DNA of 64,000 nt from Cyanobacteriota bacterium (GCA_046052125.1 JBJOMY010000002.1:256001-320000); one strand, 5' to 3'. Positions 15,936 to 51,540 are shown, counted from the stretch's first letter. Notes: a model not told the origin generated them from the letters alone. Translations and numbers: made by a program.

Positions 15936-17756
15936 TTATTTGGCCAGCAGCGCTTCCACGAACTCAAAGCTATTGAAGGGGCGCAGATCACGGATTCCTT
16001 CGCCAGCGCCGATGAAACGAATCGGCAGGCCCGCCTCCGACGACACCGCCAGGGCCACGCCGCCACGGGAGCTGCCATCAAGCTTGGTGACCACCACACC
16101 GGTGAGTCCAGCCGCCTGGGCAAAGGCCATGGCCTGCTTGAGGCCGTTCTGCCCCTGGCTGGCATCGAGCACCAACAGCGACTCCACCTGAGCGTCTGGA
16201 GCCAGCTTGTCGACGATGCGACGCACCTTGCTGAGCTCCTCCATCAGGTTGTGCTTGGTCTGCAGGCGACCGGCAGTGTCAACGAGAACGAGATCGGTGC
16301 CCTTGGCCTGGGCAGCACCGATGGCGTCAAACACCACCGCCGCCGGATCGGCATTAGCCGAGGGATTGGACACCACAGTCACGCCACTGCGCTCACCCCA
16401 AACCGCCACCTGCTGCACGGCCGCGGCGCGGAAGGTGTCGGCGGCGGCGATCAGACAGCTGTAGCCGCTGCGCACGGCGAGGTTGGCCAACTTGCCGAGG
16501 GTGGTGGTTTTGCCGACCCCGTTCACACCCACCATCAGCCACACATTGAGGCGACCCCGCTCCGGCGCCAGCAACTGAGCGCCGCTGGCCTGAATCGGGG
16601 CATCCAGCAAAGCCTTGAGCTGCTCCTTGAGGAAGCGAATGCCCTCGGCCGGCTCCACCACTTCTTCGTTGAGGCGCTTGCGCAGGGCATCGAGCACCTG
16701 ATCGGTGGCCTGCACACCCACATCGGCCCTCAGCAGGAGGCTCTCAAGGTCATCGAGCACCTCGGGGGTGAGGGGATCGTCACCGAGGTTGTCGAGCAGC
16801 TGAGTGACAAACCCGCGGCGGGTCTTCTCCATGCCGCGCCGCAGCCGGCCCAGCCAATCGATCTCCTCGAGGGAGATGTCGTCGAGCTTGCGGCCCTGAG
16901 CGGCAAGCACCTCAGCCGACCAAGTGAAGTCGTCGTCGAAGGCACCGAGCTGGGGCGCGGCCTCATCGGAGGCTGGCGCTCCAGGCGGAGCGGAGGACGC
17001 GGCGGATGACGGCGCCGCAACGGAACGCGCCGGCTCGGGCGTCTCGATGGCGCGCTCAAGCAACTCCTGCTGCCGTTGAGCGCGTTGGGCGGCGGCTTGT
17101 TCGAGCAGGGAGAGTCCCTGGGACGGAGCGGCGGGGAGATCGGCAGGGCCTCCACCCGGCTCGGGATCCGTTGATTGAGGCGCCGACGGGGGCGAGAGGT
17201 CCTCAACGGGAGCGGGGGCAGGAGCCGTGGTGAACGCGGGGAGGACCCCCGACAACACTTCTGGCGACTCTCCAGAGTGCTGCTCGGTCTGTACAGAACT
17301 CTGGACAGGAGCTGGCTGAGTAGGAGCTAGTTGGCCGGAGGCTCCTTGGGCCGGGGCTATCTGTGCCGGGGGTGTGGAGGTTTCGGCTGAAAGCGCAGTG
17401 GCTTCGGCGGAAGGCGCAATCGTTTCGGTTGAGGCCGGAACAGCTGAAGCCGAAGGGGTGACCGCCGGCGCGGCGGCCTGCTTTTCCGCTTCCTGTTGGG
17501 CTTTCAGGCGGGCATAGGCCTGGCGGGCCCAGTCGAGGGCGTCCTGATCGACGGCACCGACGGCTGGTGGCGTGGCCGGGGCAGCAGCGGGAGCGGACGC
17601 GGCCAGCTCAGGCTCAGGGCTTGGTTCGGGCGGGGCAGCTTCAGGAGCAGCGGCTGCAGGGGCTTCGCCGGCGGCAGGCGACTGCGGGGGTTGTTCCGGC
17701 TGGGACTCCTCAGGGTTCTGAGGGGCCGCGCTGCGATTGAACCAGTCGAAAACCAT
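15936..17756 (-). CDS. ftsY: SRP receptor FtsY with long Ala/Pro-rich N-terminal region
   Basis: GVNGVGKTTT, DTFRAAA, DTAGR, TKLDG, GEGIRDL. Confidence 0.96.
   Translation of the reverse strand: MVFDWFNRSAAPQNPEESQPEQPPQSPAAGEAPAAAAPEAAPPEPSPEPELAASAPAAAPATPPAVGAVDQDALDWARQAYARLKAQQEAEKQAAAPAVTPSASAVPASTETIAPSAEATALSAETSTPPAQIAPAQGASGQLAPTQPAPVQSSVQTEQHSGESPEVLSGVLPAFTTAPAPAPVEDLSPPSAPQSTDPEPGGGPADLPAAPSQGLSLLEQAAAQRAQRQQELLERAIETPEPARSVAAPSSAASSAPPGAPASDEAAPQLGAFDDDFTWSAEVLAAQGRKLDDISLEEIDWLGRLRRGMEKTRRGFVTQLLDNLGDDPLTPEVLDDLESLLLRADVGVQATDQVLDALRKRLNEEVVEPAEGIRFLKEQLKALLDAPIQASGAQLLAPERGRLNVWLMVGVNGVGKTTTLGKLANLAVRSGYSCLIAAADTFRAAAVQQVAVWGERSGVTVVSNPSANADPAAVVFDAIGAAQAKGTDLVLVDTAGRLQTKHNLMEELSKVRRIVDKLAPDAQVESLLVLDASQGQNGLKQAMAFAQAAGLTGVVVTKLDGSSRGGVALAVSSEAGLPIRFIGAGEGIRDLRPFNSFEFVEALLAK
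17271..17305. repeat. spaced palindrome copy 1 (inside ftsY linker)
   Basis: TCC agag TGCTGCTCG GTC TGTACAGAA ctct GGA. Confidence 0.7.
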
Positions 17757-17769
17757 GGGCGCCTCCTGT

Positions 17770-18396
17770 TCAGCCCTTGGCGGGGGCGCTGGTGAAGCGG
17801 CGGAGCACGCCGTTGATCATGCGGCGGCCCTGTTCGTCGCTGTAGCGGTTGGCGAGTTCCACCGCCTCATTGCAGGCCACGGCTGGGGGGGTGTTGAACT
17901 GCTCGATATCGACGGCGGCCAGGCGCAGGATGTCGCGGTCGATGCGGGGCAGGCGGGTGAGGCGCCAGCCCTCCATCACGGCATCGAGGCGCTGGTCGAG
18001 ATCTTCGCGGTCACGGAGCACCGCCCGGGCACGGTCCACGGCGCCGCGGCGAATCTCATCCTGGTCGGAGAGCATCAGCAGCCGCGGCAGCTCGAGGCTG
18101 GCGGACAAGCGATTCAGGCCCTGCTCGGCGTGAGCCAGGCCGTCTTGAAGGTGCTGACGCACGCGAGGGAGCTGCTCAGCGGCGCCTTGATCCTGCAGTT
18201 CGCTATCGAGCAGCTGCTGTTGGGCGGCCTGGAGATCGGTCGCGGCCTGATCCAGAGCTTCGCGCACGTGCTGGCTGAGCGATGCCTGGGCCTGCTGCAA
18301 CAGGGTGTCGAGCGGGGTGTCGGCAGCGGGCTGGCGATCGCTGATCTGGCCGAGCATCAGCAGGGCCAGTTCACGGGCAACGGTGCGGCTCTGCAT
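17770..18396 (-). CDS. nusB: transcription antitermination factor NusB
   Basis: RTVARELAL, WRLTRLPRIDRDILRLA, NEAVELANRY, INGVLRR. Confidence 0.94.
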   Translation of the reverse strand: MQSRTVARELALLMLGQISDRQPAADTPLDTLLQQAQASLSQHVREALDQAATDLQAAQQQLLDSELQDQGAAEQLPRVRQHLQDGLAHAEQGLNRLSASLELPRLLMLSDQDEIRRGAVDRARAVLRDREDLDQRLDAVMEGWRLTRLPRIDRDILRLAAVDIEQFNTPPAVACNEAVELANRYSDEQGRRMINGVLRRFTSAPAKG

Positions 18397-19145
18397 CAGG
18401 CCTTGTTGGAGGAGATGGGGGAGTAGGCCGGAGCGCGGAGCTGGGCGAGCAGGCTCGAGAAGCTGCGGCTGGCGGGGGTTTCGCGTTCGTCGGGGTTCAC
18501 GATGCCGGCCGAGATGATCGTGCGGAAGGCATCCTCCACCGAGAGGTTCAGATCCTTCACCGAACCCTCGGGCACCACGGCGTACCAGCCAGTGGTGGGG
18601 TTGGGGGCGGTGGGAATGAACACGCTCAGCATCGGCTGATCGAAACCAGCCGAGAGGGTGGCGCCCAGCACACCAGTCACGAATCCCAGGGCATACAGGC
18701 CCTCGCGGGGATACTCAACCAGCACCACGCGCCGGAAGCGCGTGGAGTTATCGCGCAGGAACGTTTCCAGCAGCTGCTTGAGGGTCTTGTAAACCGAGCC
18801 CGCCACGGGGATCCGCTGCAGAGTGCCCTCGCCGAACTCGAGCAACCAACGGCCCACGATGTTGCGGGCCATCAGGCCGATCAACAGGATCCCGAGCAGG
18901 GGCACCAACAGGCCCAAACCCAGGTTGATCAGCTCCTGAAGGATCGGATCAAGCGTGTTGAACGGATTGAGCTGCTTGGGGATCGAGGTGAGGAACGCCA
19001 GGACAAAGCGCGTCACCGTGGTGGCCAGCCAGATGGTGGTGGCCAAGGGGATCACCACCAGTAGGCCGGCGATCAGATCGTTCTTGAGGTCCTGCTGGAG
19101 GCGATCGCCCAGGGGCTGCTCAGGTCTGGGACTGGATTGCACCAA
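18396..19145 (-). CDS. DUF502 membrane protein
   Basis: LIAGLLVVIPL, VYKTLKQL, VLVEYPR, VFIPTAPNPTTG. Confidence 0.88.
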   Translation of the reverse strand: MVQSSPRPEQPLGDRLQQDLKNDLIAGLLVVIPLATTIWLATTVTRFVLAFLTSIPKQLNPFNTLDPILQELINLGLGLLVPLLGILLIGLMARNIVGRWLLEFGEGTLQRIPVAGSVYKTLKQLLETFLRDNSTRFRRVVLVEYPREGLYALGFVTGVLGATLSAGFDQPMLSVFIPTAPNPTTGWYAVVPEGSVKDLNLSVEDAFRTIISAGIVNPDERETPASRSFSSLLAQLRAPAYSPISSNKA

Positions 19146-19201
19146 TGACAGGCCGGGGCGTCCGGTGAAAAAAGTCCAAACTGCAACTTAGCCAGCCGCC
19201 T

Positions 19202-19852
19202 TCACAGAACGGCTACGCAGGCCAACAGCACAAACGCCACGAGCAACACCACAGCCGTGCCCGTTCCACCGATGCGGCGCTGGTTGGCGGCCAGATCGCG
19301 GCGGTTTTCAGCCTGCTTCAGCTGCGACTCAGCCTGACCGAGCTGACGGTTCATAAAGGCCTGGGCGGCCTGTTTCTTCTGGGCCTCCGTGGCTGTGGCA
19401 GGAATCTGACCAGCCTGTTCGCCCTGGGCGATCACCTGCTCGATCACCTGAGGGTTTTCGAGCTGAGCCTTGGCCATCTCCAGCTGGCCGCGCTGAGCCA
19501 GCAGCGCCTGGTTGGCCTGATCGCTCACGGCGCGATCGCCGCTGATGGTGACGGGGATCGTGATCAGCAGAGCCAAGGCCAACAGGCCACTCAGCACACA
19601 CACAAACCAGCGCAGCGGGGTGCGACCGGGCACTGGTTCATCAAGGCGCTGACCGATCAGCATCAGCAACATGCCCACGAAGGCCATGGGCGACTGGGTG
19701 ATCAGCGTGGTGGAGAGCAGCTGGCGGAAGCTCTCCTCGCCCCAGCCGTTCACCGCCAACACCGCCAGGAGCTGGAGTCCCAGCAACACCACCAGGGTGA
19801 TGCCCAGCCAACGGAACAGGGTGCCGAAACGGCCGGTCGCTGCTGAACTCAC
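19202..19852 (-). CDS. HpsJ-like cyanobacterial membrane protein
   Basis: three N-terminal TM helices, Gln-rich coiled coil, C-terminal TM; conserved position between queG and DUF502; start uncertain. Confidence 0.65.
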   Translation of the reverse strand: MSSAATGRFGTLFRWLGITLVVLLGLQLLAVLAVNGWGEESFRQLLSTTLITQSPMAFVGMLLMLIGQRLDEPVPGRTPLRWFVCVLSGLLALALLITIPVTISGDRAVSDQANQALLAQRGQLEMAKAQLENPQVIEQVIAQGEQAGQIPATATEAQKKQAAQAFMNRQLGQAESQLKQAENRRDLAANQRRIGGTGTAVVLLVAFVLLACVAVL

Positions 19853-19884
19853 AGTGGTGCTGACGCAATCGCGCAATCGTAGGG

Positions 19885-20835
19885 GTGGTGGATCTAGCTG
19901 ACACCCTTAAGCAACAGGCCAGGCAACTGGGCTTTGCGGCGGTGGGTATCGCCTCCGCTGCGGGCAGTGAGCGGCTGCGGCTGCGCACAGCGGCTCTGGA
20001 GCGCTGGCTGAAAGCAGGCCATCAAGCCGACATGGCCTGGATGGCCGATCCCCGCCGGCGGGCGGTGGAAGCGCTACTGCCGGGGGTGCGCAGTGTGGTG
20101 GCGGTGGGACTGCCCTATTGGGTGGGAGCCCAGCGGGCACCTGGCAGCTTGAAAGTGGCCCGCTACGGCTGGGGCCGCGATTACCACCGGGTGATCGATG
20201 GGCGGTTGCGGGCGCTCGGCCGCTGGCTGGAGAGCCAAATACCAGGTGTGGGCTGGCGCGCCTGCGTGGACAGCGCCCCACTGCTTGATAAGGCCTGGGC
20301 GGAGGAAGCGGGCCTGGGCTGGATCGGCAAACACAGCAACCTGATCAGCCGCGAGCACGGCTCTTGGCTGCTGATTGGCCACCTGCTCACCACCGCCGAC
20401 CTCCCGGCCGACCAGCCCGCTTTACCGGCCTGCGGGGCCTGCAGTGCCTGCATCGAGACCTGCCCCACGGGCGCCATCAGCGAGCCCTTCGTGGTGGATG
20501 CGCGCCGCTGCATCGCCTTTCACACCATCGAAAACCGCGACGAGCAACTGCCTCCGCCCATCGCCGAGGGCCTGGAGGGTTGGGTGGCCGGCTGCGACAT
20601 CTGTCAGGACGTGTGTCCGTGGAATCACCGGCGCTTCGAGGGCAGTGGGGACCCCGATCTGCAGCCCCGGCCCTGGTGGCTGGATCTGCGGGCCGACGAG
20701 GCCCTGGCCTGGAGCGATGCGGACTGGGACGAGAAGCTGCGGGCCTCCGCCCTGCGCCGCATCAAACCGGCGATGTGGCGGCGGAACATTCGAGCGGCAC
20801 TGCAATCGGATGGGGCGAAACACCACGCGCCCTAG
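19885..20835 (+). CDS. queG: tRNA epoxyqueuosine reductase
   Basis: ARYGWGRDYH, GLGWIGKH, CGACSACIETCP and GCDICQDVCPWN Fe-S motifs. Confidence 0.95.
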   Translation: MVDLADTLKQQARQLGFAAVGIASAAGSERLRLRTAALERWLKAGHQADMAWMADPRRRAVEALLPGVRSVVAVGLPYWVGAQRAPGSLKVARYGWGRDYHRVIDGRLRALGRWLESQIPGVGWRACVDSAPLLDKAWAEEAGLGWIGKHSNLISREHGSWLLIGHLLTTADLPADQPALPACGACSACIETCPTGAISEPFVVDARRCIAFHTIENRDEQLPPPIAEGLEGWVAGCDICQDVCPWNHRRFEGSGDPDLQPRPWWLDLRADEALAWSDADWDEKLRASALRRIKPAMWRRNIRAALQSDGAKHHAP

Positions 20836-20894: not shown

Positions 20895-20929
20895 TCCAAG
20901 GTTCCGTGCGGTGTGTACGGAAAGGGGGA
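20895..20929. repeat. spaced palindrome copy 2 (queG-TPR intergenic)
   Basis: TCC aagg TTCCGTGCG GTG TGTACGGAA aggg GGA. Confidence 0.8.
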
Positions 20930-21019: not shown

Positions 21020-21907
21020 ATGGCTGCGCGCTGGTGGAAGGTTCTGGCGGCGGCACCCCTGATGCTCTCGGCCCTGAGCGCAGCGCAACCGGCTCGGGCC
21101 CTGGTGCCTTACGTGGCCGTTCCAGAGGCGCGCAACCTTGAAGGGGCCGGCCTGGGCATCGCTCAGGCGGCGGCGCGCTTGCTGCGGATCGGCCAGGCCG
21201 ACGACGCCGCGCGGCTGGCGGCCCTCACCGTGCAGCTGATTCCCAACGATCCCCGCGGTTGGGTGCTGCTGGCCGAGGCGCAGCTGCGCAGCAATCAAGA
21301 CAAAGCCGCTGGCGTGTCGCTGGCCAAGGCCCGGGAACTCGACCCGCGCAATGCCGGGATCATTTTTGCCCAGGGTTCGCTGGCTCTGAAAGACAGCCGA
21401 CCGTCCGAGGCTGCCGAGCTAATCAACCAAGGCCTGAAGCTCGACGGCAAGAACGCGGGCGCCTATTTCGACCTCGGCAACGCCTATCTGCTGATGGGAA
21501 AACCGGGCGATGCACTGGGGGCCTTCGAGCGGGCTTCGGGGCTGCGCCGCGAGTTCTGGGAGGCGATCAACAACCAGGCCCTGGTGCTCTACGAGCAAAA
21601 CAAAGACGGCGAGGCGATCAAGCGCTGGCGCCGGGTGCTGGCCATCAAGGCCGCCGCGGAGCCTTCCCTGGCCCTGGCGGCGGCAATGAATGTGAAGCAG
21701 CCCGGGAATCTGGAGAGCCTGGAGCTGGCGGCCAAGGCCCTGGCCGAGGAACCCAACTACGTGCTCGAGAGCTGGCAGAAGGAGCAGCTCTGGGGTCCGC
21801 GGCTGCGTAGCGATGCAGCAAAGCTGCTGAAAGAACCCTCCCTGAAGGCCGATGTGGATCGGGCCCAGGCGAACGCCGGTGGCCACGACGACCTGGGCGA
21901 CGAATAA
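21020..21907 (+). CDS. tetratricopeptide repeat protein with signal peptide
   Basis: N-terminal signal (…AQPARA), repeated TPR helices (AYFDLGNAY, AINNQALVLY). Confidence 0.88.
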   Translation: MAARWWKVLAAAPLMLSALSAAQPARALVPYVAVPEARNLEGAGLGIAQAAARLLRIGQADDAARLAALTVQLIPNDPRGWVLLAEAQLRSNQDKAAGVSLAKARELDPRNAGIIFAQGSLALKDSRPSEAAELINQGLKLDGKNAGAYFDLGNAYLLMGKPGDALGAFERASGLRREFWEAINNQALVLYEQNKDGEAIKRWRRVLAIKAAAEPSLALAAAMNVKQPGNLESLELAAKALAEEPNYVLESWQKEQLWGPRLRSDAAKLLKEPSLKADVDRAQANAGGHDDLGDE

Positions 21908-24473: not shown

Positions 24474-27440
<2,967 letters not shown>

Positions 27441-27505
27441 CCGGGCGGCTCGGGAATAGGGGACTCTACGGGGATCCGCTGGGGGGCGATGGCACAGCCA
27501 ACCAA

Positions 27506-29182
27506 CTACCCAGCCCGCTTGAGCAGGCTGGCGGCATAGCTGCGGGTTTCACCGGAATCGCCGCCGGCCAGTTCCGCAAGTTCGGCTTGGCGGGCCTGAG
27601 TGTCCCGCAGTTGGGACACCTGCGTGTGGGTAGCGCCTGCGCGCACTTCCTTCGACACGCGGAAGTGATGGTCGGCCGCCGCGGCCACGAGGGGCTGGTG
27701 GGTGACGCAGAACACCTGGCGTTGCTGCGCCAAGCGCTGCAGCAACTCCGCCATGGCGCCACTGACGCGGCCGCTCACGCCGGTGTCGATTTCATCGAAC
27801 AGCAGGGTCACATGGGGATCCGCCGCGGCCAGGCAGGTTTTCAGCGCCAGCAGGAAGCGCGACATCTCACCGCCTGAGGCAACCTCCGCCAGGGGTGCCA
27901 GGGGCTGGCCGGGGTTGGCGGAGAACAGAAACTGCACTGCATCTGCACCCTCTTCCCCGGGGGTGGCCGGCTCGATCGCCACGCTGAAGCGCACGTTGGC
28001 CAACCCCATCGGGCGCAGTGCCTGCATCAGCTGCTGCTCGAGCTGCTCAGCGGCGGCGCGGCGGGCAGCGCTGAGCTGGGTATTGCAGCGGTCGCGTTGC
28101 TGCCGGGCCGCCAACTCGTCGGCTTCGAGTGCTTCGAGGCTGGCCTCCGCACCGCCAGGCGCCAACTGCTCTCGGAGCTCATCACGCCAGGCAATCAGCT
28201 CGGCAACGCTTTTGCCATGGCGGCGTTCCAGAGCTTTGAGCTGAGCGATGCGCTGCTGCAGTTGATCCAGGCTGTCGGGATCGCTCTCCAAGCCAGCGCC
28301 GTAGCGATCCAGATCGCGGGCCAGATCCTGAAGCTGGGCGAGGCCATCGCTGCAGCGGCTGGCGAGCGCCGCCACCTCAGGGTCGAGCTGCTGCATCGCC
28401 GCTAGTTCGCCCTCGCAGGCCGCCAGGTGATCCAGCACCGAAGGAGCCTCCTCGGCCCCATCCACCAGCCGGCCGATCAGAGTCATCACGCCCTCCTGAA
28501 GCCGCACACCGTGGGCCAGGCGGTTCTCCTCGCCCTCCAGCCGCTCCCGTTCAGCCGGATCCTCGAGCTGGGCTGCCTCCAGATCCGAGAGCAACTGCTC
28601 CTGGCGTTCGCGCTCCTGCTGCAGTTGCTCCCAGTTGCTCCGGGCCAGCTCAAGGGCTTGGGAAGCGGCCCGCCAATCGCGAAAGGCTTCCGCCACCACC
28701 GGCAGCTGGGCCTGCAGCAGCTCGCCAGCGAAACGGTCCAACCAACGCCGCTGTTGACCAGGGCGCGCCAGTTGCTGTGTCTGCCCCTGCACGGTGAGAT
28801 CGAGCAGCAGGGGGCGCAGTTCCTGAATCTGGCTGCGATTCACCGCCACGCCATTGAGCCGGTGCCGACTGCTGAGACGGTCCTCGCTGAGGCGCCACTC
28901 GCGGCTGAGCAGGATTTCGTCGTCGTCGGCCTCGAGCTCCTGATCCGCCAGCCAGCTCTGCAGTGGCGGCGTGAGGCTGAAGCTGGCCTCGATCACGCCA
29001 CGCTCGCTCCCCTGGCGCAGCAGGCGTGGGCCACCAGAGCCGCCCAACAGCGCATCGAGCGCATCCAACAGGATCGATTTACCGGCGCCGGTTTCACCGG
29101 TGAGAACCGTGAACCCACCGCTGAAATCAAGCTGCAGCTGCTCGATCAGGGCGATGTTCTGCAGGCGCAGTCCGGTGAGCAC
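27506..29182 (-). CDS. recN: DNA repair protein RecN
   Basis: LTGETGAGKS, FSANPG, ASGGEMSR, FDEIDTGVSG, CVTHQP. Confidence 0.96.
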   Translation of the reverse strand: MLTGLRLQNIALIEQLQLDFSGGFTVLTGETGAGKSILLDALDALLGGSGGPRLLRQGSERGVIEASFSLTPPLQSWLADQELEADDDEILLSREWRLSEDRLSSRHRLNGVAVNRSQIQELRPLLLDLTVQGQTQQLARPGQQRRWLDRFAGELLQAQLPVVAEAFRDWRAASQALELARSNWEQLQQERERQEQLLSDLEAAQLEDPAERERLEGEENRLAHGVRLQEGVMTLIGRLVDGAEEAPSVLDHLAACEGELAAMQQLDPEVAALASRCSDGLAQLQDLARDLDRYGAGLESDPDSLDQLQQRIAQLKALERRHGKSVAELIAWRDELREQLAPGGAEASLEALEADELAARQQRDRCNTQLSAARRAAAEQLEQQLMQALRPMGLANVRFSVAIEPATPGEEGADAVQFLFSANPGQPLAPLAEVASGGEMSRFLLALKTCLAAADPHVTLLFDEIDTGVSGRVSGAMAELLQRLAQQRQVFCVTHQPLVAAAADHHFRVSKEVRAGATHTQVSQLRDTQARQAELAELAGGDSGETRSYAASLLKRAG

Positions 29183-29278: not shown

Positions 29279-31459
29279 ATGCCAAGCACCAACAGCCCGC
29301 TGACCCCTCTGGAAGCCGCCAGCGCCGCCATGCGCCGCAACGTGATGGGCGAGATCGCTGTAGGCGAGGAGGCTGTCAAGTCCAACGCCGATCAGTCGGC
29401 CACGGCAGCAACCACAACTCGCTCAAACGAACATCCCGACTTCTGTACAGACAGCCCAGAAGTCCGAACGTGCGTCGACACACATCCCGAAAGCCAACCG
29501 ATCACGCAATCCCAGCGAGCGACTGCGCCATCCCCGCAGCCAAGGAACGCCACCACACCCCCGAACGCCGACCTCAGGGATTTCATTGAGGTCTCCGGCC
29601 TCCTGGAATACGACCCAGCCGCCATCAGCCGCATCTATGCCGGCGCCCCCCAACGCCTGATCCGGCGCATCTGGCAGACGCTGGTGCCCATCGGCCTCTA
29701 TCTACTGAGCGTGGGGATCGACTGGCTCACTCGCCGGCTCGCCAACCACGACCACGCCAGAGCCCGCGCCAAGGAAGCAGCGGATCTGGTGGCCTCCCTC
29801 GGCCCCGCCTTCATCAAGGCCGGTCAGGCCCTCTCCACCCGGCCCGACATCGTGCCCCCCCTGCTGCTGGAAGAGCTGGCGGGCCTGCAAGACCAACTGC
29901 CGGGCTTCGATTCAGCTCTGGCGATGGCCTGCATCGAGGAAGACCTCGGCGCGCCGATCGCTTCGATTTACGCCGAGCTGGAGCGCGAACCGATCTCCGC
30001 CGCCTCCCTAGGCCAGGTGCACCGCGGCGTGTTGCTCAACGGCGAGAAGGTGGCCGTGAAGGTGCAGCGGCCCGGCCTGCGCGAGCAGATCACGCTCGAT
30101 CTCTACATCGTGCGCAACATCGCCGCCTGGCTCAACCGCAACATCGGCCTAATCCGCTCCGATCTGGTGGCCCTGATCGATGAGCTGGGCAAGCGGGTGT
30201 TCGAGGAGATGGACTACTGCAACGAGGCCTCCAACGCAGAGCGTTTCGCCGAGCTGCACGCCCACAACCCCCGCATCGCCGTTCCCCGGATCCACCGGCA
30301 TGCCACCGCACGGCGGGTGCTCACGATGGAGTGGATCGATGGGGTGAAGCTCACCAACCTCGAGGCGGTGCGCCAGCTGGGCATCGACCCCGACGACATG
30401 GTGACCGTGGGGGTGAACTGCTCGCTCCAGCAGCTACTCGAGCACGGCTTTTTCCACGCTGATCCCCACCCCGGCAACCTGCTGGCCCTGGCGGATGGCC
30501 GGCTGGCCTATCTCGATTTCGGAATGATGAGCACCGTGAGCCGCGAGAGCCGCACGGGGCTGATCCAGGCGGTGGTGCACCTGGTGAACCGCAACTTCGG
30601 CAAGCTCTCCAAAGACTTCGTGAGCCTGGGCTTCCTCGCCCAGGACGTTGACCTCTCACCGATCGTGCCGGCCTTCGAGCAGGTGTTCGGCCAGGCCCTG
30701 GAGATGGGGGTGAGCCGCATGGATTTCAAGGCCGTCACCGACGACCTCAGCGGCGTGATGTATCGCTTCCCCTTCCAGGTGCCGCCCTACTACGCCCTGA
30801 TCATCCGCTCACTGGTGACCCTCGAAGGCATCGCCCTGAGCGTGGATCCCGAGTTCAAAATCCTCGGCGCTGCCTATCCCTATTTCGCCCGCCGGTTGAT
30901 GGAAGACCCCGATCCCCAGTTGCGCAACAGCCTCAAGGAGATGTTGTTCGACGGCGAGATCTTCCGCTGGCAGCGGCTCGACAACCTAATCAGCAGTGCC
31001 GCCAGCGGCAGCCAGCTGGATCTCGATGGCCTGCTGGATCAGGTGCTCGATTTCCTGTTCTCCCCCAACGCCGGCCTCCTGCGCGGGCAGCTGGTGGAAG
31101 CGGCGGTGAATCAGATGGATGCCCTGGGCTGGCAAACCACCCTGCGCATCACGCAGCGGCTGCCACGGCTGCTGCGCCCCCCCGGCCTGCGCGATGCCCA
31201 GCCGCTGAGCGCCAACGACGCCGAGCTGCTCTCGCTCGAGCCGATCCAACGGCTCGTGGCGATCCTGGGCCAGCTGCCTGGTTTCGATCCCCAACTCCTG
31301 CTGAAGCGGGTGCCGCGGCTGCTGCGGGAAACGGAGCTGCGCCGCATGGGGACGGAACTGGCCCGCGGACTGGCAGAGCGGGGTGTGGTGCACCTGGTGC
31401 GGGATGTGTTGGTGGGGGCTGATCGCAGCCGCCGGACTGCGTTGCAACAACCCGCCTAA
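29279..31459 (+). CDS. AarF/ABC1/UbiB atypical kinase
   Basis: LGPAFIKAGQALSTRPD, AASLGQVH, VAVKVQRP, FFHADPHPGN, DFG; start uncertain, low-complexity N-terminal extension. Confidence 0.92.
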   Translation: MPSTNSPLTPLEAASAAMRRNVMGEIAVGEEAVKSNADQSATAATTTRSNEHPDFCTDSPEVRTCVDTHPESQPITQSQRATAPSPQPRNATTPPNADLRDFIEVSGLLEYDPAAISRIYAGAPQRLIRRIWQTLVPIGLYLLSVGIDWLTRRLANHDHARARAKEAADLVASLGPAFIKAGQALSTRPDIVPPLLLEELAGLQDQLPGFDSALAMACIEEDLGAPIASIYAELEREPISAASLGQVHRGVLLNGEKVAVKVQRPGLREQITLDLYIVRNIAAWLNRNIGLIRSDLVALIDELGKRVFEEMDYCNEASNAERFAELHAHNPRIAVPRIHRHATARRVLTMEWIDGVKLTNLEAVRQLGIDPDDMVTVGVNCSLQQLLEHGFFHADPHPGNLLALADGRLAYLDFGMMSTVSRESRTGLIQAVVHLVNRNFGKLSKDFVSLGFLAQDVDLSPIVPAFEQVFGQALEMGVSRMDFKAVTDDLSGVMYRFPFQVPPYYALIIRSLVTLEGIALSVDPEFKILGAAYPYFARRLMEDPDPQLRNSLKEMLFDGEIFRWQRLDNLISSAASGSQLDLDGLLDQVLDFLFSPNAGLLRGQLVEAAVNQMDALGWQTTLRITQRLPRLLRPPGLRDAQPLSANDAELLSLEPIQRLVAILGQLPGFDPQLLLKRVPRLLRETELRRMGTELARGLAERGVVHLVRDVLVGADRSRRTALQQPA
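29434..29468. repeat. spaced palindrome copy 3 (in ABC1 kinase N-terminal extension)
   Basis: TCC cgac TTCTGTACA GAC AGCCCAGAA gtcc GAA. Confidence 0.7.
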
Positions 31460-33237: not shown

Positions 33238-33271
33238 ACCCACCGACCTGAACGAACGAGGGTTTGCGCCC

Positions 33272-33311
33272 GCAAAAAGCCCCGCCGAGGAAACCCGGCG
33301 GGGCTTTTTGC
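33272..33311. terminator. bidirectional intrinsic terminator after thrC
   Basis: perfect 16-bp inverted repeat GCAAAAAGCCCCGCCG ... CGGCGGGGCTTTTTGC with A/T tracts at both ends. Confidence 0.9.
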
Positions 33312-33329
33312 TGCCAGACAACCACCAAA

Positions 33330-33686
33330 GCGTCTGTTCACAGGCTGAGGAAAACCTGCCAGGCCACCCAGGTAAAACTCAGGGTGCCCGACACAGCCTA
33401 AACCCGTGACTTTTCCGCAATCCCGGGAATCAGCGGAAAAGCTCATTTTCCGGATGCGCTCGCTAGGAAATTCACCAGGGTTGTGGAAATGAGATCAATT
33501 GCACTGCAGTGCTTAAGAGGGGTTTTGATCCGTTTCCCCATCCTCTACGGCTACGGATCTGGATTTTGATTTTTAAATCTTTTGATCCAATAGACGTGGT
33601 GTTGGGGAGAAGCGTGGAAACCGCTCGCTCAGCCCGTTGCGCTTCCGGCCCCGTTGTGGAAGCGTGGGGGCCGCTTTGCCGACACC
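33330..33686. other. probable chromosomal replication origin (oriC)
   Basis: non-coding region upstream of dnaN; near-matches to cyanobacterial DnaA box TTTTCCACA (33346-54 rc TTTTCCTCA, 33411-19 TTTTCCGCA, 33482-90 rc ATTTCCACA, 33532-40 GTTTCCCCA, 33613-21 rc GTTTCCACG, 33655-63 rc GCTTCCACA); AT-rich tract 33562-33590. Confidence 0.8.
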
Positions 33687-34817
33687 ATGAAGCTGGTCTG
33701 CTCCCAGGCCGAACTCAATGCCAGCCTTCAGCTGGTGAGCCGGGCCGTGGCAGGCAGACCAACCCATCCGGTGCTGGCCAACGTGCTGCTCACCGCCGAT
33801 GCCGGCACCGGTCGCCTCAGCCTCACGGGATTCGACCTGAGCCTCGGCATCCAAACCAGCCTCAGCGCCTCGGTGCACACCAGTGGCGCGATCACCCTGC
33901 CGGCCCGTCTGTTTGGCGAGATTGTCTCCCGCATGCCGGCCGACAGCCCGATCAGCCTCAGCTGTGAGGAGGGCGGCGAGCAGGTGGAGCTCACCAGCGC
34001 CTCAGGCAGCTATCAGATGCGGGGCATGCCCGCTGAAGACTTCCCGGAGCTCCCCCTCGCCCAGGCCGCCACGCCGATCAAGCTTGACCCTGAGGTGTTG
34101 GTGAAAGGCCTGCGGGCCACCCTGTTCGCCAGCAGCAGCGATGAAGCCAAACAGCTGCTCACCGGGGTGCACCTCGGCCTGGATGCCGAAGGGCTCGAGT
34201 GCGCCGCCACCGATGGTCACCGTTTAGCGGTGTTGCGCCTGCAGAACAGCGCCGAGGCGGAGGCCCAGCTCGACGTGACGGTTCCGGCCCGCTCCCTGCG
34301 GGAGTTGGAGCGGTTGCTCTCCAGCCGGGGCGGCGGTGATCCCGTGAGCCTGTTCTGTGATCGCGGCCAGGTGGTGTTCCAGTGGGCCGATCAGGTGCTC
34401 ACCAGCCGCAGCCTGGATGGCACCTATCCCAACTACCGCCAGTTGATCCCGGAAAGCTTCGGCCGCAGCCTCAGGCTGGATCGCAAGGGGTTGCTCAGCG
34501 CCCTGGAACGGGTGGCGGTGCTGGCCGATCAGCACAACAACGTGGTGAAGATCAGCAGCGATCCCGCCGCCGGTCAGCTGGCCATCAGTGCCGACGCCCA
34601 GGACGTGGGCAGCGGTTCCGAATCAATCGCCGCCGACGTAAGCGGTGAGGCGATTCAAATCGCCTTCAACGTGCGCTACGTGCTCGAGGGCTTGAAGGCG
34701 ATGAGCGCCGAGCGGGTGGAGGTGCGCTGCAACGCCCCCACCACGCCGGTGGTGCTGGCGCCGGAGGATGAATCAGCCTTCACCTATCTGGTGATGCCGG
34801 TGCAGATCCGCCAGTGA
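33687..34817 (+). CDS. dnaN: DNA polymerase III beta clamp
   Basis: MKLVCSQ, HPVLANV, ATDGHRLA, GTYPNYRQLIP, IAFNVRY, LVMPVQIR. Confidence 0.97.
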   Translation: MKLVCSQAELNASLQLVSRAVAGRPTHPVLANVLLTADAGTGRLSLTGFDLSLGIQTSLSASVHTSGAITLPARLFGEIVSRMPADSPISLSCEEGGEQVELTSASGSYQMRGMPAEDFPELPLAQAATPIKLDPEVLVKGLRATLFASSSDEAKQLLTGVHLGLDAEGLECAATDGHRLAVLRLQNSAEAEAQLDVTVPARSLRELERLLSSRGGGDPVSLFCDRGQVVFQWADQVLTSRSLDGTYPNYRQLIPESFGRSLRLDRKGLLSALERVAVLADQHNNVVKISSDPAAGQLAISADAQDVGSGSESIAADVSGEAIQIAFNVRYVLEGLKAMSAERVEVRCNAPTTPVVLAPEDESAFTYLVMPVQIRQ

Positions 34818-35605
34818 GCCTGCCGGAGCAACTGCTGCTCAGCGACCTGCTGCGCCGCCGCGTGCGCTGCGATCAGGGCATCGACCATGGCCCGGGAGCC
34901 GTTGCCTGGATGCATCCGCCGGTGCATCGGCTGCTGGGCTGGATCAGCAAACCGTCAACCTTTGGCGATCGTCGCCAGGCCTGGCGGCTCGATCAGTTGC
35001 GCGGGCTGGGTGAGTTGGAGGCCCTGGTGCAGGGCGATCCCGCCGACACCGACCTCCCCACCGTCGACCGCCTGCCCACTCTGATCGAGGCAGCGGTGCT
35101 CGATCGCCGCGGTGAACCGATCGGCACCGTGGCCGATGCCGCCGTGGAGCTCGGCACCGGCCAGATCCTCCACTACCTGGTGTCCCGCAGCGACCCGCGT
35201 CTGCCCGGCAGCAGCCGCTGGCGCCTCAGCCCTGAGCGCATCAGCGATCAGCAGCCCGGCCAGGTGTTCACAGGCCTGAGCGGGCTCGATGATCTGCCGT
35301 TGGCCCGCGCCAGCGTGCGCCAGGAGTTTCTGCGCCGTGGCCGCCGCTGGCGCGATCAGCTGCAGGAGGAAACCGAGCGATTGCGCGACCAGTTCCAACA
35401 GGCCGGCGATCGCTTCGAGGAGCGCTTGGAGGGCTGGATCGAGGAGGAACCGGTCTGGGAGCGGCAGCCCGACCAGCCTCAGCGCCCTCGACGGCCAGTT
35501 GAAGCTTGGGATGATTGGGATGACGACCGGGATTCCTACGACGCACCGCCCGCCCGGTCACGCCCCCAGCGGCCGGGCGGGCAAGACGATGATCCCTGGC
35601 TCTGA
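34814..35605 (+). CDS. conserved PRC-barrel-like protein downstream of dnaN
   Basis: VLDRRGEPIGTVAD...TGQILHYLVS PRC-like segment; acidic C-terminus ending DDPWL. Confidence 0.75.
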   Translation: MSLPEQLLLSDLLRRRVRCDQGIDHGPGAVAWMHPPVHRLLGWISKPSTFGDRRQAWRLDQLRGLGELEALVQGDPADTDLPTVDRLPTLIEAAVLDRRGEPIGTVADAAVELGTGQILHYLVSRSDPRLPGSSRWRLSPERISDQQPGQVFTGLSGLDDLPLARASVRQEFLRRGRRWRDQLQEETERLRDQFQQAGDRFEERLEGWIEEEPVWERQPDQPQRPRRPVEAWDDWDDDRDSYDAPPARSRPQRPGGQDDDPWL

Positions 35606-44139: not shown

Positions 44140-45156
44140 TTAAGGCGCCAACAGGAAGCCGTCGCGGAAGGCATCCCCCGGATCGCTGCCGCGTTTGAGC
44201 GCCGCTTCCACCTCCAGCAGCTGACGCAACAGAGCCAGGAAGCGGGCTGGTTTGCGGCCACGGATCTGCTTGCGCATCACGTAGACGCGTTTGGGGTTGC
44301 CGATGCCGGCGGCCTTGGCGATCGCATTCACATCGTTCTCGCCCTGTTGATCGAGCAGGCTCACCCACAACCAGCCGCGGATCTGCCCGCAGAGGGTGGC
44401 CACGATCCGCAGGGCTGGCTCGTTGGCCACCAGCAGTGCATCCACCAGCGCCACCGCTTCAGCGGGCTTTCCGGCCAGCAGTGCGTCGCCCACCTGCAGT
44501 GCATTGGTGGCCTGGCTGCCCACCAGGGCCTCCACGGCGGCGGCAGTGATGGGGGGTTGCTTGCTTGTTCCGAGCTGTTGCAAAGCGCCCGGCTGGGCCC
44601 CCACATAGAGCGCCAGCTTCTCCAGCTCGCTCGCCAAGCGGGCACTGTCGCTGCCAATGGCTTCGCTCAGGGCCTCTGCGGCGGCGTGTTCGAGCGTGAG
44701 TCCCAGCTCCCGGGCCGTGCGCTGCACTAGCTCGATTTGGCCGGCTCCGTCCCAGATCGCCGGCAGCTGGAAGCTCTGCTCCCGCGCCTCACCGGCCTTC
44801 ACCAGCTTCTGCAGGGCCTTGGTGGTTCGCAGGCGTGCATCAGGTTTGCCGGCGTTCACCAGCAGCAGATGGCAGTTGCTGGGGATCAGGGGGAGGGTGG
44901 CCTCCAGTTGCTCCGCCAGTTCCGCCGGGCATTGGTTGCAGAACGGACTGCGCTGCAGCACCACCACCCGATCACCGTCACCGAAGGGCGGCGTCCGCGC
45001 TTCCTCCAGAGCTTGGGCCGCCTGGCTGGTGTCGCTGCCATCGAGGCGGGACAGGTTGATGCTCTGCCAAGCCGGATCGGTGAGCTGGCTGATCAGGGTG
45101 TCCACCGCCCGGCTGCGGGCAGCTTCGTCGTCGCCCCAGAGCAGGTGGATCGGCAT
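44140..45156 (-). CDS. holA: DNA polymerase III subunit delta
   Basis: MPIHLLWGDD, TPPFG, KPDARL, ELEKLALY, GIGNPKR. Confidence 0.92.
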   Translation of the reverse strand: MPIHLLWGDDEAARSRAVDTLISQLTDPAWQSINLSRLDGSDTSQAAQALEEARTPPFGDGDRVVVLQRSPFCNQCPAELAEQLEATLPLIPSNCHLLLVNAGKPDARLRTTKALQKLVKAGEAREQSFQLPAIWDGAGQIELVQRTARELGLTLEHAAAEALSEAIGSDSARLASELEKLALYVGAQPGALQQLGTSKQPPITAAAVEALVGSQATNALQVGDALLAGKPAEAVALVDALLVANEPALRIVATLCGQIRGWLWVSLLDQQGENDVNAIAKAAGIGNPKRVYVMRKQIRGRKPARFLALLRQLLEVEAALKRGSDPGDAFRDGFLLAP

Positions 45157-45887
45157 CAGATCCTCAGGGCGCTGAGCACCGGGTGTTGGCCAGTCTGGGC
45201 GAGGGCGGGGTGATCGGTTACTAGCACGGTTGCCTCGGTGGCAATCGCCGTGGCTAGCTCGATCGCTCGGGTGTCGTCGAGTTGGGGTTCCTGCCGCTGC
45301 AGCCGCGTGGCCGCGAGCACCAGGGCGCCATCGGCAGGCACCTGCAACCAATGCTCCGGATTGGCGAAGGCATTGGCGTAGCGGTGGGCCAGCACTTCGT
45401 CTCCCCGGGCCAGGGGCCCTTCCAGAACCCGCGCCAAGCTCACACTGCTGATCACCCCCTGCCAGGTGCCCTGGGCAATGCCCTGCATCAGCGGTGTGAG
45501 GTACTTGCCAGTGCCTTTGGCATCAGCCAGGAAGGCCACCAGGGCGGAGCCATCCAGCGCAATGCGGCTGCCGTGCTTCAGATGACTGGGACTAAACGGT
45601 TCCGTTCCGATCGGCTGCACCAACGCCGGAGTGGCTGGTGCTGGGCGGGCGGGATGGCGCTGGTTGGGATCCCAGCAATTGCGGCCACTGCCCTGCAGGG
45701 TCATCAGGCTTTGAATCTGCCGCTGGCGTTTGTGCGGATCGCTGGAAGGCTGGCCCCCAATGGGCACCAGAGCCGCCATGGGCTTTTTGTGCCGTTGAAT
45801 CACGAACGCTTCACCAGCTGCGGCCCGCTCCATTAGTTCCGGGAGCCTGCGACGCGCTTCCTCAACGCCGAGAGGTGGTGTCGACAT
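45156..45887 (-). CDS. Phd/YefM antitoxin domain fused to a degenerate PIN (VapC-like) domain
   Basis: N-terminal EARRRLPELMERAAAGEAFVIQRHKKPMAALVP; C-terminal IALDGSALV...ISSVSL...AIELATA...LVTD. Confidence 0.75.
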   Translation of the reverse strand: MSTPPLGVEEARRRLPELMERAAAGEAFVIQRHKKPMAALVPIGGQPSSDPHKRQRQIQSLMTLQGSGRNCWDPNQRHPARPAPATPALVQPIGTEPFSPSHLKHGSRIALDGSALVAFLADAKGTGKYLTPLMQGIAQGTWQGVISSVSLARVLEGPLARGDEVLAHRYANAFANPEHWLQVPADGALVLAATRLQRQEPQLDDTRAIELATAIATEATVLVTDHPALAQTGQHPVLSALRI

Positions 45888-45902: not shown

Positions 45903-45937
45903 TCCGCTTTTCTGTACGGAGTGTACGGAAGTTTGGA
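45903..45937. repeat. spaced palindrome copy 4 (16 bp upstream of the Phd-PIN start)
   Basis: TCC gctt TTCTGTACG GAG TGTACGGAA gttt GGA (symmetry extends to GTGTCC/GGACAC). Confidence 0.8.
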
Positions 45938-46125: not shown

Positions 46126-46821
46126 GTGGCTGATGCCCCTCCCGGTTTCGATCACCCGATCTTCAGCGAGAGCATTCGCCTGATTCGCGCTGCGCTGGCA
46201 GAGCAGCCACCACAACTGGGGTTTGATCTCTTCAGCCTCGCGCCCCCCGAGCAGGACGTGTTGCTGCGTTTGATCCACAGCAGCGGCGATCTCAGCGTGG
46301 CGGCCGATCTGCGCTTCTCGCCGGATGCCTGCAGTGTTGGCCTCGAGGCTCTGGCGCACGGTGCTCCGATCCTCACCGACACCGCTATGGCCGCGGCTGC
46401 CGTAGCACCGATGGCGCGCCGCACCTTCGGCAACAGCGTGCACAGCGTGTTGAGCTGGGCGCCCGCTCAGGCCCCGGCCGGAAGCACACGAGCGGCGGCG
46501 GGGACGGAGCGAGCCCTGCAGGAGCATCCCGGTGCGGTGGTGTTGATCGGAAGTGCGCCGACCGCTCTTGAGTTGCTTCTCGAGCAGGTGGCCGTCGGCC
46601 AAGCCGCGGCGCCGGCCCTGGTGATCGGGATGCCGGTGGGGTTTGTGGGGGTGGCGGAGAGCAAGCGCCACCTGGCCGAGAGCGGGCTAGCGCAGATCCG
46701 CCTGGAGGGCAGTCGAGGTGGCGCCGGCTTAGTGGGAGCGGCGGCCAACGCCCTGCTGCGTCGGGCTTGGCTGGATCAGGCCGCGGCTCGGGTTTCTGCC
46801 GCCGGGCCCACCGCCACGTGA
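46126..46821 (+). CDS. cobH: precorrin-8X methylmutase
   Basis: [46 protein letters not shown]. Confidence 0.92.
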
Positions 46822-49577: not shown

Positions 49578-49651
49578 GGCCTGGGTGCGGGTGCTCGATC
49601 GTAGGTCGATCGCCAAGACAGCCTTCTGGAGAGCAACGCTGCTGCGAGCCC

Positions 49652-49686
49652 TCCCTAATTCCGTGCAGACTGTACAAAAAAGAGGA
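49652..49686. repeat. spaced palindrome copy 5 (mutS/psbZ divergent region)
   Basis: TCC ctaa TTCCGTGCA GAC TGTACAAAA aaga GGA. Confidence 0.75.
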
Positions 49687-49840
49687 CGGTCCTGAGTGCT
49701 TGCTTTCAGCCCCCGTCCCGCCTCGAGTCCCGCCCCGCCTTGCCGCCACAACTTGTGAAGGAACCCGCCAGCACTCACCAGGCCCGTGGAACCTGCGTGG
49801 GAGAATCCATCAACTGCTCGGCCGGCGCCGCCGCTGTTCC

Positions 49841-50029
49841 ATGACGATCCTCAACACCCTCACCGTTCTGGCTCTGGTGGTGATGTCGTTCGCCCTGATC
49901 GTCGCTGTGCCAGTGCTTTATGCCAGCGACGACACCAGCGGTCGTTCCAACCGCCTGATCCTCTTGGGTGGCCTGGCTTGGGTGGCTCTGGTGCTGGTGA
50001 ACTGGGGCATGAGCTACTTCGTAGCCTGA
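49841..50029 (+). CDS. psbZ: photosystem II protein Z
   Basis: 62 aa, two TM helices, [14 protein letters not shown]; upstream of ribH. Confidence 0.92.
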
Positions 50030-50050
50030 GCGCACTGAAGCGCAGCCAGC

Positions 50051-50530
50051 GTGACCGTTTTTGAAGGCCAGTTCGTCGGAGCGCAGTCGCTGCGCGTTGC
50101 CATCGTGGTGGCCCGCTTCAACGACCTGGTTACGTCCAAATTGCTGAGCGGCTGTCTCGACTGCCTATCGCGCCACGGCATCGACACCTCGTCCACCAGC
50201 ACACAGCTCGATACCGCCTGGGTGCCCGGCAGCTTTGAGATTCCTCTGGTGGCTCAGCGCCTCGCTGCCAGTGGTCGCTACCAAGTGGTGATCACCCTCG
50301 GCGCCGTCATCCGCGGCGATACCCCGCACTTCGATGTGGTGGTGGCCGAAGTGAGCAAGGGTGTGGCTGCCGTGAGCCGCGACACCGGCGTGCCCGTGAT
50401 CTTCGGGGTGCTCACCACCGACACGATGCAGCAAGCCCTGGAGCGCGCTGGCATCAAGAGCAACCTGGGCTGGAGCTATGGCCTTCAGGCTCTCGAGATG
50501 GGCAGCCTGATGGAGGCACTGCCTAGCTGA
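50051..50530 (+). CDS. ribH: 6,7-dimethyl-8-ribityllumazine synthase
   Basis: [39 protein letters not shown]. Confidence 0.96.
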
Positions 50531-50912
50531 GCTGCTTCGCCACGCTCAGCGGCAGATTCGGATTCTCGGGATTCACACTGAGGCGCTGCAGCTGAGGTTG
50601 CAGCACCAAATCCATGTCTTCCATCGGGATCGCTCCCAGCAGCACCTCATCGCCGAGCACCATGGCGCCGGTGAAGCAACGGCGGTTGGCGAAGCGCACC
50701 TCCACCGGTCCCATGTAGGGAACGCTTTGCCTGCGTCCATCGGCCAATACCACTTCGCGCCGCTCTAGTTCCCGGAGCTGCAGCTGCAGGGCCACATGCT
50801 CGGGGATGCAGAGGTGAACAGCGCCCGAATCGGCCAAGGCCTTCACCTCAAGGCCTTGCACCTCGGGATTGCTGGGGTTCAGCAGCTGCAGGCTGGCGTG
50901 AATCAATCCCAT
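50523..50912 (-). CDS. clan AA (retropepsin-like) aspartic protease
   Basis: ALADSGA catalytic motif, [17 protein letters not shown]. Confidence 0.8.
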
Positions 50913-50984
50913 GGGGTGCTGGTGCTGGAAAAGTAGGTGGTCTTGGCGCGGTTGAAGCCGCAACCTTTGAATGCCACCGCTGTT

Positions 50985-51449
50985 TCAGTTGTTGCTCTGA
51001 TCGCGCCGCAACAGCTGCTGGCCGTTGACGCGGGCAAAGCCCAGCTGTTCATAGAAGCCGGCGCTGTTGGTGGTCATCAGATACACACGCTCCACCCCTG
51101 CCAACGCTGGTGAGGCCAGCAGCGCCTCCACCAGTTGGCGGCCCAGGCCTTGGCCCTGGAGATCTTCCGGGATCACCACATCCCAGAGCACGGCGCGGAA
51201 GACCCCATCGCTGCTGGCCCGGGCGAAGCCCACGAGGCGTTTGCCGCGCCATAGGCTCGCCACGGCGGCACTGCCCGCCAGCATGCGGCGCAGCTGCCCG
51301 AGCGATCGACCCTGGGCCCAGAAGGTGTGTTGATCCAGCAGCCGTTGCAGCTTCCAGAGGCCGCGGCTGGGACGCAGCCCCGGACCCAGCCCCAGCCAAC
51401 GCAGGCCTGGTGCACCCGGGGCGTGGATCAGCAGGCGAACGGCGTCCAT
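50985..51449 (-). CDS. GNAT N-acetyltransferase (Ycf52-like)
   Basis: LVGFARA, LWDVVI...QGQGLG, FYEQLGF. Confidence 0.85.
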   Translation of the reverse strand: MDAVRLLIHAPGAPGLRWLGLGPGLRPSRGLWKLQRLLDQHTFWAQGRSLGQLRRMLAGSAAVASLWRGKRLVGFARASSDGVFRAVLWDVVIPEDLQGQGLGRQLVEALLASPALAGVERVYLMTTNSAGFYEQLGFARVNGQQLLRRDQSNN

Positions 51450-51505
51450 GGGCTGATTGTCGTGCAGCAGCTGAACAAGGCCTGGTTGTGATCTGCGGGG
51501 GATTG

Positions 51506-51540
51506 TCGGGACTTCTGTGCAGTCTGTACAGAACTCTGAA
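51506..51540. repeat. spaced palindrome copy 6 (GNAT/rmlA divergent region)
   Basis: TCG ggac TTCTGTGCA GTC TGTACAGAA ctct GAA; extra half-site TTTGTACAG at 51551-51559. Confidence 0.8.

Follow-up and report, generated by a model that had tools for sequence, protein, structure and literature searches.

A paired GTAC palindrome, mostly near the origin of a picocyanobacterial chromosome, as candidate binding site of a Phd/YefM-PIN fusion protein encoded beside holA

The stretch of cyanobacterial DNA analysed here, 64,000 nucleotides long and called the window throughout (G000:C2:256001-320000), carries six copies of a 35-bp palindrome with invariant internal spacing. Its host genome, G000, comprises 2.64 Mb in 10 contigs, with 64-66% GC and a completeness of 99.96%. 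We propose that the palindrome is the binding site of a protein encoded in the same window, in which a Phd/YefM-type antitoxin domain is fused to a PIN/VapC domain (an open reading frame, ORF, of 243 amino acids at 45156-45887, minus strand), and we judge this predicted binding to be moderately probable. The fourth copy (45903-45937) stands 15 bp upstream of the ATG of this ORF and is probably its autoregulatory operator, predicted to control also holA, the gene for DNA polymerase III delta (44140-45156, minus strand). A preliminary description of the window had left the binder without a name; this view probably does not hold up: the fusion gene co-occurs with the motif, and one copy is its likely operator. 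New here are a Phd/YefM-type operator with a 9-bp spacing, dispersed and mostly origin-proximal sites, and a fused antitoxin-PIN gene beside holA. Our literature search found no paper on the motif or on a Phd-PIN fusion beside holA, and a query combining CTGTACAG with "cyanobacteri" returned nothing about cyanobacterial DNA motifs by title or abstract.

The six copies start at positions 17271, 20895, 29434, 45903, 49652 and 51506, each 35 bp long, exactly as first described, and a symmetrised 35-bp weight matrix built from them adds no further copy in the window, again in agreement with the preliminary description. What is conserved among 105 distinct copies from 17 genomes is a 21-bp core, TTCYGTACRG-N-CYGTACRGAA, made of two CYGTACRG palindromes that are 9 bp apart centre to centre (GTAC-N5-GTAC) in all copies. 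The outer 7-bp arms are loosely kept and have genus-specific consensus sequences, TCCAGRR/YYCTGGA in the host genus and TTTCGAG/CTCGAAA in another. With up to 2 mismatches allowed, the core pattern gives 9 matches in the window (5 sites counted on both strands), against an expectation of 0.02 from 100 shuffles; the first copy, whose left half is degenerate, is missed at this threshold. When the whole host genome was scanned with the matrix, 13 strong copies (score >33) were found, 12 of them on contig C2 (41.5-365 kb) and one on C1, together with three weaker ones scoring 16-21. The control scan of the reversed genome produced a single match above 12, with a score of 14.7.

Position links the motif to the fusion gene. 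A copy lies upstream of that gene in 12 of 12 loci of the genus, at 6-34 bp in eight and at 49-197 bp in four with uncertain starts, so measured that the distance is at most 80 bp in ten loci and 90 and 197 bp in the other two. None of the other 12 strong copies in the host genome is within about 80 bp upstream of the start of a Phd/YefM antitoxin gene. By coordinates, the motif also precedes the fusion gene in G041, G035, G043, G164, G066 and G186, and in the divergent clade of G033, G035, G041 and G043 this copy is almost the only one. In G066, besides a copy 63 bp upstream, a second one (C1:2250860-2250880) sits inside the fusion gene, about 250 bases into the ORF.

The two traits also occur together. 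Of 201 family genomes that were complete enough to be searched, 61 have the core, with 5-18 copies in each, and they represent 13 of the 36 genera. Several other genera, each sampled with 15-16 genomes, yielded no copy, and a control pattern read backwards had 0-2 matches per searched genome. In the same 201 genomes, with sites counted when present on two strands and a cut-off of E <= 1e-10 for the gene, the fusion gene was found in 36 of the 40 genomes with at least two sites, in 3 of the 9 with exactly one and in 6 of the 152 with none. In four of these last six, a variant with 3 mismatches stands directly upstream of the gene. Among the 22 genomes of the genus, the gene is syntenic and full length in 15, split in two in G012 and G031, and reduced to a remnant in G010 and G014; the search did not find it in G016, G006 or G007. 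The genus genomes that have no motif at all are G006, G010 and G016, that is, two in which the gene was not found and one with a remnant.

The protein itself was examined by Pfam, profile and fold comparisons. Its N-terminus matches PF02604 (PhdYeFM_antitox) with E 1.4e-6 and 28.4 bits (cut-off 29.8), a profile of 10 orthologues matches the Phd-type antitoxin VapB46 (E 2.7e-4), and the N-terminal 68 residues find VapB46 alone among PDB sequences (E 0.043). Homologues, whose sources include Synechococcus sp. HK05 and Cyanobium strains, are named type II toxin-antitoxin system Phd/YefM family antitoxin by NCBI; PF02604 is a precomputed assignment for most of them, and both Pfam domains are annotated in some. 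The AlphaFold (AF2) model has a mean pLDDT of 63, with 75-85 across most of the C-terminal domain, and predicts a beta-alpha-alpha-beta-beta N-terminal domain that a disordered linker joins to a C-terminal PIN/VapC domain. For the latter, Foldseek returned 13 PDB matches with E <= 1e-3, mostly bearing VapC or PIN-domain names (TM-score on the target 0.55-0.67), and the fold matches include the DNA-bound complexes VapBC2 (3zvk) and FitAB (2bsq). The gene is one uninterrupted ORF of 242-250 amino acids in all 10 aligned genomes, and an invariant G-V-E-x-A-R-R-R-L stretch lies near the N-terminus of the aligned orthologues. Its stop codon overlaps the ATG of holA (TGATG, 45154-45158), which suggests that a toxin-antitoxin-type gene and an essential replication gene are translationally coupled.

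There is a close precedent for such an operator. According to Kedzierska et al. (PMC1802561), the paired 5'-TGTACA-3' palindromes to which YefM antitoxins bind lie upstream of the antitoxins' own genes; these palindromes overlap the yefM promoter, and in many bacteria paired TGTACA boxes lie at most 80 bp from the yefM start. The motif resembles the yefM-yoeB and axe-txe operators in that GTAC-centred palindromes stand side by side directly upstream of a Phd/YefM-family gene, and in that palindromy runs past the hexamer (PMC1802561 and PMC7544224). According to the latter, two YefM dimers of the Staphylococcus aureus YoeB-YefM-DNA complex occupy adjacent major grooves, where Arg10-Gln11 read the GTAC core (PMC7544224); the invariant E-A-R-R-R of the fusion protein is, judged by eye, at the matching N-terminal position. 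Unlike in yefM-yoeB, the partner domain is PIN rather than YoeB and is fused in one chain, and the motif occurs in 5-18 copies per genome, mostly far from antitoxin genes.

VapBC and FitAB likewise combine a PIN-domain toxin with a DNA-binding antitoxin, but they are encoded by two genes, whereas the window protein is a single polypeptide, syntenic with holA across several genera, and its candidate sites are dispersed over the chromosome. FitAB is said to form an octamer that covers about 36 bp of inverted repeat. The presence of DNA-bound VapBC2 and FitAB among the fold matches offers a precedent for PIN-bridged antitoxin oligomers on long inverted repeats.

The variation among copies fits readout by a protein. 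Variable Y/R positions of the core change independently of their mirror positions (Watson-Crick pairing of 47% at pair 4/18 versus 53% in shuffles), which is expected of protein readout and not of base pairing. In the outer arms, 3.13 of 7 pairs are complementary versus 2.96 in within-genome shuffles (98 copies, 10 genomes), an excess that is not significant; the preliminary remarks that the spacers next to the core are mostly non-complementary and that a protein-binding site is a better description than an RNA hairpin are both borne out. A single-stranded structure would be the natural alternative for so long a palindrome: an RNA hairpin or DNA cruciform that signals processing or termination, or that the PIN nuclease targets. 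We consider this very unlikely, although it has some evidence in its favour. In a given copy, mismatches of the transition type are preferentially G-T on one and the same strand (p about 0.001), and when eight genomes were tested singly, complementarity of the outer arms was in excess in G164 (p 0.006), where 3 of 10 copies have perfectly complementary arms that differ in sequence (permutation test), and in G153 (p 0.03). The host genome was borderline (p 0.07), however, and five of the eight had p >0.1. The mismatch concordance could reflect either a single-strand hairpin or strand-biased (C-to-T) mutation; for the three host-genome copies with a known transcribed strand, G-U pairs occur there in one and C-A mismatches in two.

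Two hairpins on the same core do look like terminators. One, at C1:108803-108837 of the host genome and outside the window (also given as C1:108810), is a GC-rich perfect hairpin with the CTGTACA...GTACAG core followed by a T-run, and a similar one lies 3' of pdxJ in G032 (locus L055, about 1512; genome position 2303218). Most copies have no T-run, though, and Rfam 15 at gathering score gave 0 matches in the window. By eye, the orientation of the better-kept half showed no pattern relative to the replication side or to gene direction.

Taken together, the upstream copy in 12 of 12 loci, the co-occurrence, the YefM precedent, the predicted folds, the independence of the Y/R positions and the conservation of the core count in favour of the fusion protein as the binder. 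Several observations weigh against it. The known YefM operators are 12 bp centre to centre (GTAC-N8-GTAC; PMC1802561 and PMC7544224) whereas the motif has 9 bp (GTAC-N5-GTAC), the PF02604 score of the window protein falls just below the gathering cut-off, and the structural model is only of moderate quality. Four genomes (G014, G114, G119 and G204) have at least two sites without the gene at the cut-off used; in G204, holA and cobH are adjacent with no trace of gene or motif between them, and yet 17 sites are found elsewhere. G007, whose assembly is only 94% complete, yielded 5 sites and no fusion gene, and in G079 and G134 all or part of the gene is present without a site at the threshold used. 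The co-occurrence is also partly phylogenetic: both traits mark one clade, and kinship inflates the table.

Other Phd-type antitoxins in the same genomes could be the binder instead. More generally, the sites may belong to another DNA-binding protein, be it a different Phd-type antitoxin or some other regulator, for which the operon of the fusion gene and holA would be one target among several. Sites that persist in G204 and G014 without an intact fusion gene agree with this explanation, as do several free-standing Phd/YefM antitoxin genes near motif copies in the same genomes. The free-standing Phd genes that were inspected do not have the motif directly upstream, however (the nearest copy is 370 bp away, in L041), and the fusion gene is the only one with the motif immediately upstream in every genome checked. 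We regard a different binder as improbable and retain the fusion protein as the preferred candidate.

At the fourth copy itself, a scan with consensus promoter and terminator patterns found nothing. One low-depth metatranscriptome contig (run X22, depth 2.1) spans this copy and the start of the ORF, although contigs from RNA libraries cannot show transcription, strand or transcript ends.

The copies are spread unevenly over the chromosome, as the preliminary description had anticipated. In the window, dnaN occupies 33654-34817, and the intergenic region between thrC and dnaN (33238-33653) is the putative oriC. It contains near-matches, picked out by eye, to the DnaA-box consensus, and the cumulative GC skew of C2 is V-shaped with a minimum at 260-300 kb (4-44 kb in the window); given the position of dnaN and this minimum, the earlier placement of the origin is plausible. 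Contig C2 (541 kb), which carries both, makes up 20.5% of the host genome and holds 12 of its 13 strong sites. A mirror symmetry of site pairs about the origin had also been suggested. It is not seen in the wider set of C2 sites, nor about dnaN in the sets of G032 and G204.

We used the number of sites within 250 kb of dnaN and a permutation test on mean distance to examine three other complete genomes, and repeated the test after merging sites less than 10 kb apart. In G032, 10 of 15 sites are within 250 kb where a fraction of 0.18 is expected (p 0.0007; merged, 8 of 13, p 0.007), and in G204, which belongs to another genus, 14 of 17 (expected 0.155, p < 0.0001; merged, 8 of 11, p 0.0001). 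In G008 the figure is 2 of 9 (expected 0.18, p 0.45; merged, 2 of 5, p 0.09); a third site lies 259 kb from dnaN, and six form one island about 930 kb away. Two genomes in which dnaN was not located were judged by the distance to the regulator gene, that is, the fusion gene: in G066, 8 of 15 sites are within 171 kb of it, and in G186 only 1-2 of 8 are near it by the same measure. In two fragmented assemblies, 8 of 14 (G113) and 7 of 12 (G065) sites are on the contig with dnaN. The enrichment near the origin that had been proposed therefore stands as significant in G000, G032 and G204, three of the five genomes judged, and fails in G008 and G186.

This distribution bears on the idea, put forward in the preliminary description, that the sites are centromere-like. 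They might organise the origin domain in a lineage without ParB, serving segregation, SMC loading or anchoring, and such a role would be compatible with the fusion protein as their binder. Consistent with it, ParB_N (PF02195) had 0 matches in the 99.96%-complete host genome (the control was positive in 10 of 14 named genomes) while SMC is present, and conserved copies occur within genes and between convergent ones, which is common for parS sites as well. The motif, for which protein binding is predicted, resembles the parS sites of ParB and the ram sites of RacA, which are origin-proximal centromere-like sites, in being a low-copy palindrome that is enriched in the origin-proximal fifth, with some copies in genes. 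It differs from parS in sequence and in its enrichment not being universal, quite apart from ParB not having been found.

We nevertheless find a centromere-like function quite unlikely. Besides the two genomes in which the enrichment fails, G010, G016 and G006 belong to the same genus and have zero sites, and some members of the genus lack both motif and gene; no ParA-type partner is linked; and an orthologous site that is 248 kb from dnaN in G000 is 1169 kb away in G032. Moreover, just 12 kb separate the fusion gene from dnaN, which makes it impossible to tell whether the sites cluster around the gene or around the origin.

The places occupied by the motif are conserved among relatives, even across genera, in agreement with the preliminary expectation. 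In alignments of orthologous loci from two genera, the core appears as a conserved island in DNA that otherwise cannot be aligned. The first copy (17271-17305) lies in the variable linker of the open ftsY frame (15936-17756), with a conserved coding block upstream of it in gene direction, and the same site is found in G032 and G204. The second (20895-20929) is between queG (stop at 20835) and a TPR gene (ATG at 21020), both on the plus strand, and the third (29434-29468) separates the divergent recN (minus) and ABC1/UbiB kinase (plus) genes, a place that is also occupied in G032. The fifth (49652-49686) is between the divergent mutS (minus) and psbZ (plus), and the sixth (51506-51540) between a GNAT acetyltransferase gene (minus) and rmlA (plus). 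Listed by place, sites are shared between the host genome and G164, whose DnaN is 78% identical (at gpx, smpB and rimM-manC, the last also in G032), between the host genome and G032 (recN, GntR, pdxJ, gcvH and the GTPase gene), and between the host genome and G008 (a dehydrogenase-like ORF).

Not all of the sites are at promoters. Among the 13 strong sites of the host genome, those in divergent intergenic regions are at recN/ABC1 kinase, fusion gene/cobH, mutS/psbZ, GNAT/rmlA and GntR/unannotated ORF, and those in tandem regions at queG-TPR and downstream of pdxJ. Two are between convergent genes (crcB and gpx; a protein kinase gene and smpB), one (C2:359168) is between ORFs without a family match, and three are inside ORFs, namely the ftsY linker, the 3' part of a GTPase ORF that shares 4 bases with the gene after it, and a 3-hydroxyisobutyrate-dehydrogenase-like ORF. 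At least 5 of the 13 are thus away from promoters, and copies conserved within a gene, or between two convergent ones, are no ordinary promoter operators. An SOS-like regulon of the nearby repair genes (recN, mutS, holA and uvrA) was dropped, since sites also flank unrelated genes and sit inside the ftsY, GTPase and dehydrogenase-like genes.

The mutS-psbZ locus is more variable. Eight of 23 genus genomes have the motif there, within a variable insert between two conserved promoter-like blocks, and in the other 15 the whole insert is missing (20 of the 23 were aligned; G031, G035 and G043, which have no motif at this locus, were left out). The block upstream of psbZ, CCACAACTTGTGAAGGAACC ... 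GTGGGAGAATCC (window 49700-49860, loci L008-L037), is conserved in all 20 aligned genomes and probably represents the psbZ promoter, whose -10 element would be GAGAAT.

Such patchiness could point to a mobile or recombination-associated repeat, either an element resembling repetitive extragenic palindromes (REP) or miniature inverted-repeat transposable elements (MITE), or an integron-like cassette boundary. In other genomes, dense mini-clusters of 3-4 copies in 2-6 kb lie within low-GC islands full of toxin-antitoxin cassettes, insertion sequence (IS) elements, Fic and a group II intron reverse transcriptase, and a mobile or cassette-linked history is possible for some copies; an integron integrase pseudogene in G065 also speaks for this reading. 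As an account of the motif as a whole, however, we hold this origin to be highly unlikely: there are only 5-18 copies per genome, and sites are kept at orthologous places across genera. No solo half-sites (up to 1 mismatch) outside full sites were found in the host genome, nor was any full-length element with the motif as its ends, so an IS bounded by the motif was rejected. DUF2887/Rpn genes were likewise not found there, although no search was aimed at a RAYT-type transposase. DUF2887/Rpn nucleases were also dismissed as binders, being present in 4 of 22 genus genomes and not in the site-rich G000, G008, G040 and G044.

Integron attC sites are longer (57-141 bp) and have R'/R'' boxes, none of which were seen in the 35-bp motif. 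They were rejected as an identity for it because GTAC-N5-GTAC does not occur within 19 kb of the integron integrase pseudogene of G065 or of the integrase fragments of G113 and G000. The G065 pseudogene (C2:24767-25693), near full length with one stop codon and scoring 440 bits, over the cut-off, lies beside an island of 45-47% GC; the fragments (G113 C13:9392-10052 and G000 C3:23604-23798) are not associated with the motif either.

If the fusion protein is indeed the binder, each dimer of its N-terminal domain would read one CYGTACRG palindrome, as YefM reads TGTACA, and PIN-PIN contacts would join two dimers into a tetramer over both palindromes and their flanks, giving a 35-bp footprint. 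At the fourth copy such a complex would act as autoregulator of the operon of the fusion gene and holA. The dispersed copies are under selection and do not form a classical regulon, as several of them sit where no promoter can be, which argues that their binding serves something other than classical promoter control. As a guess, we favour a titration or architectural function within the origin-proximal domain; binding of this kind would make the amount of free repressor, and with it the expression of holA, depend on how many copies of the origin region are present. We infer both the stoichiometry and any role of the dispersed copies.

The antitoxin MqsA is said to act on other promoters besides its own. 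The fusion protein would resemble such antitoxins as a repressor of antitoxin type with predicted genomic sites beyond its own operator, but the additional sites are numerous, shared between genera and in many cases away from promoters. A domesticated Phd/YefM-PIN protein, encoded with the clamp-loader gene holA and occupying a conserved set of about 10-18 origin-concentrated sites, might act at the level of the chromosome in these ParB-less freshwater picocyanobacteria, a speculation that we put forward as improbable. It could then be an organiser of the origin domain or a centromere-like mark, a sensor of origin copy number that sets holA expression, or a DNA-tethered nuclease or roadblock.

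Should the predicted binding be true, a toxin-antitoxin module would have turned into a conserved chromosomal DNA-binding system of one chain, wired to an essential replication gene and with a stable extra set of sites that is independent of promoters and favours the origin region. This would provide a concrete protein and a list of sites for asking how ParB-less picocyanobacteria mark or sense that region, and would contribute an example to the debate over the function of chromosomal toxin-antitoxin modules. Were the additional copies plain operators or relics, the motif would still represent a new operator geometry for the Phd/YefM family.

The preliminary distinction of the motif from parS, NtcA and LexA boxes is upheld, LexA boxes differing in spacing (N5 in the motif). 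The cyanobacterial LexA consensus is RGTAC-N4-GTWC. LexA was rejected as the binder; it is present in 22 of 22 genus genomes, with or without the motif. The region upstream of lexA carries GGTACAAATGTATT, and the host genome has separate AGTAC-N4-GTACT boxes with a spacing unlike that of the motif. Outside the window, three copies of AGTACGG(A/G)CGTACT (C1:162228, C1:714394 and C3:29917) are LexA-box-like palindromes in a repeated context, with near-identical flanks (tgtatc...atgc).

The remaining observations concern the neighbourhood of the origin. No tRNA gene was found in the window. Replication and repair genes are concentrated at the origin: uvrA and recN follow one another head to tail on the minus strand (24474-29182), 4-9 kb from dnaN, and within 16 kb of it there are also mutS, holA and a gyrA-like gene. 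An unannotated ORF of 263 amino acids (34814-35605) starts at the stop codon of dnaN; its only family match is a weak one to PRC-barrel (E 0.0012, below the cut-off), and its position is conserved.

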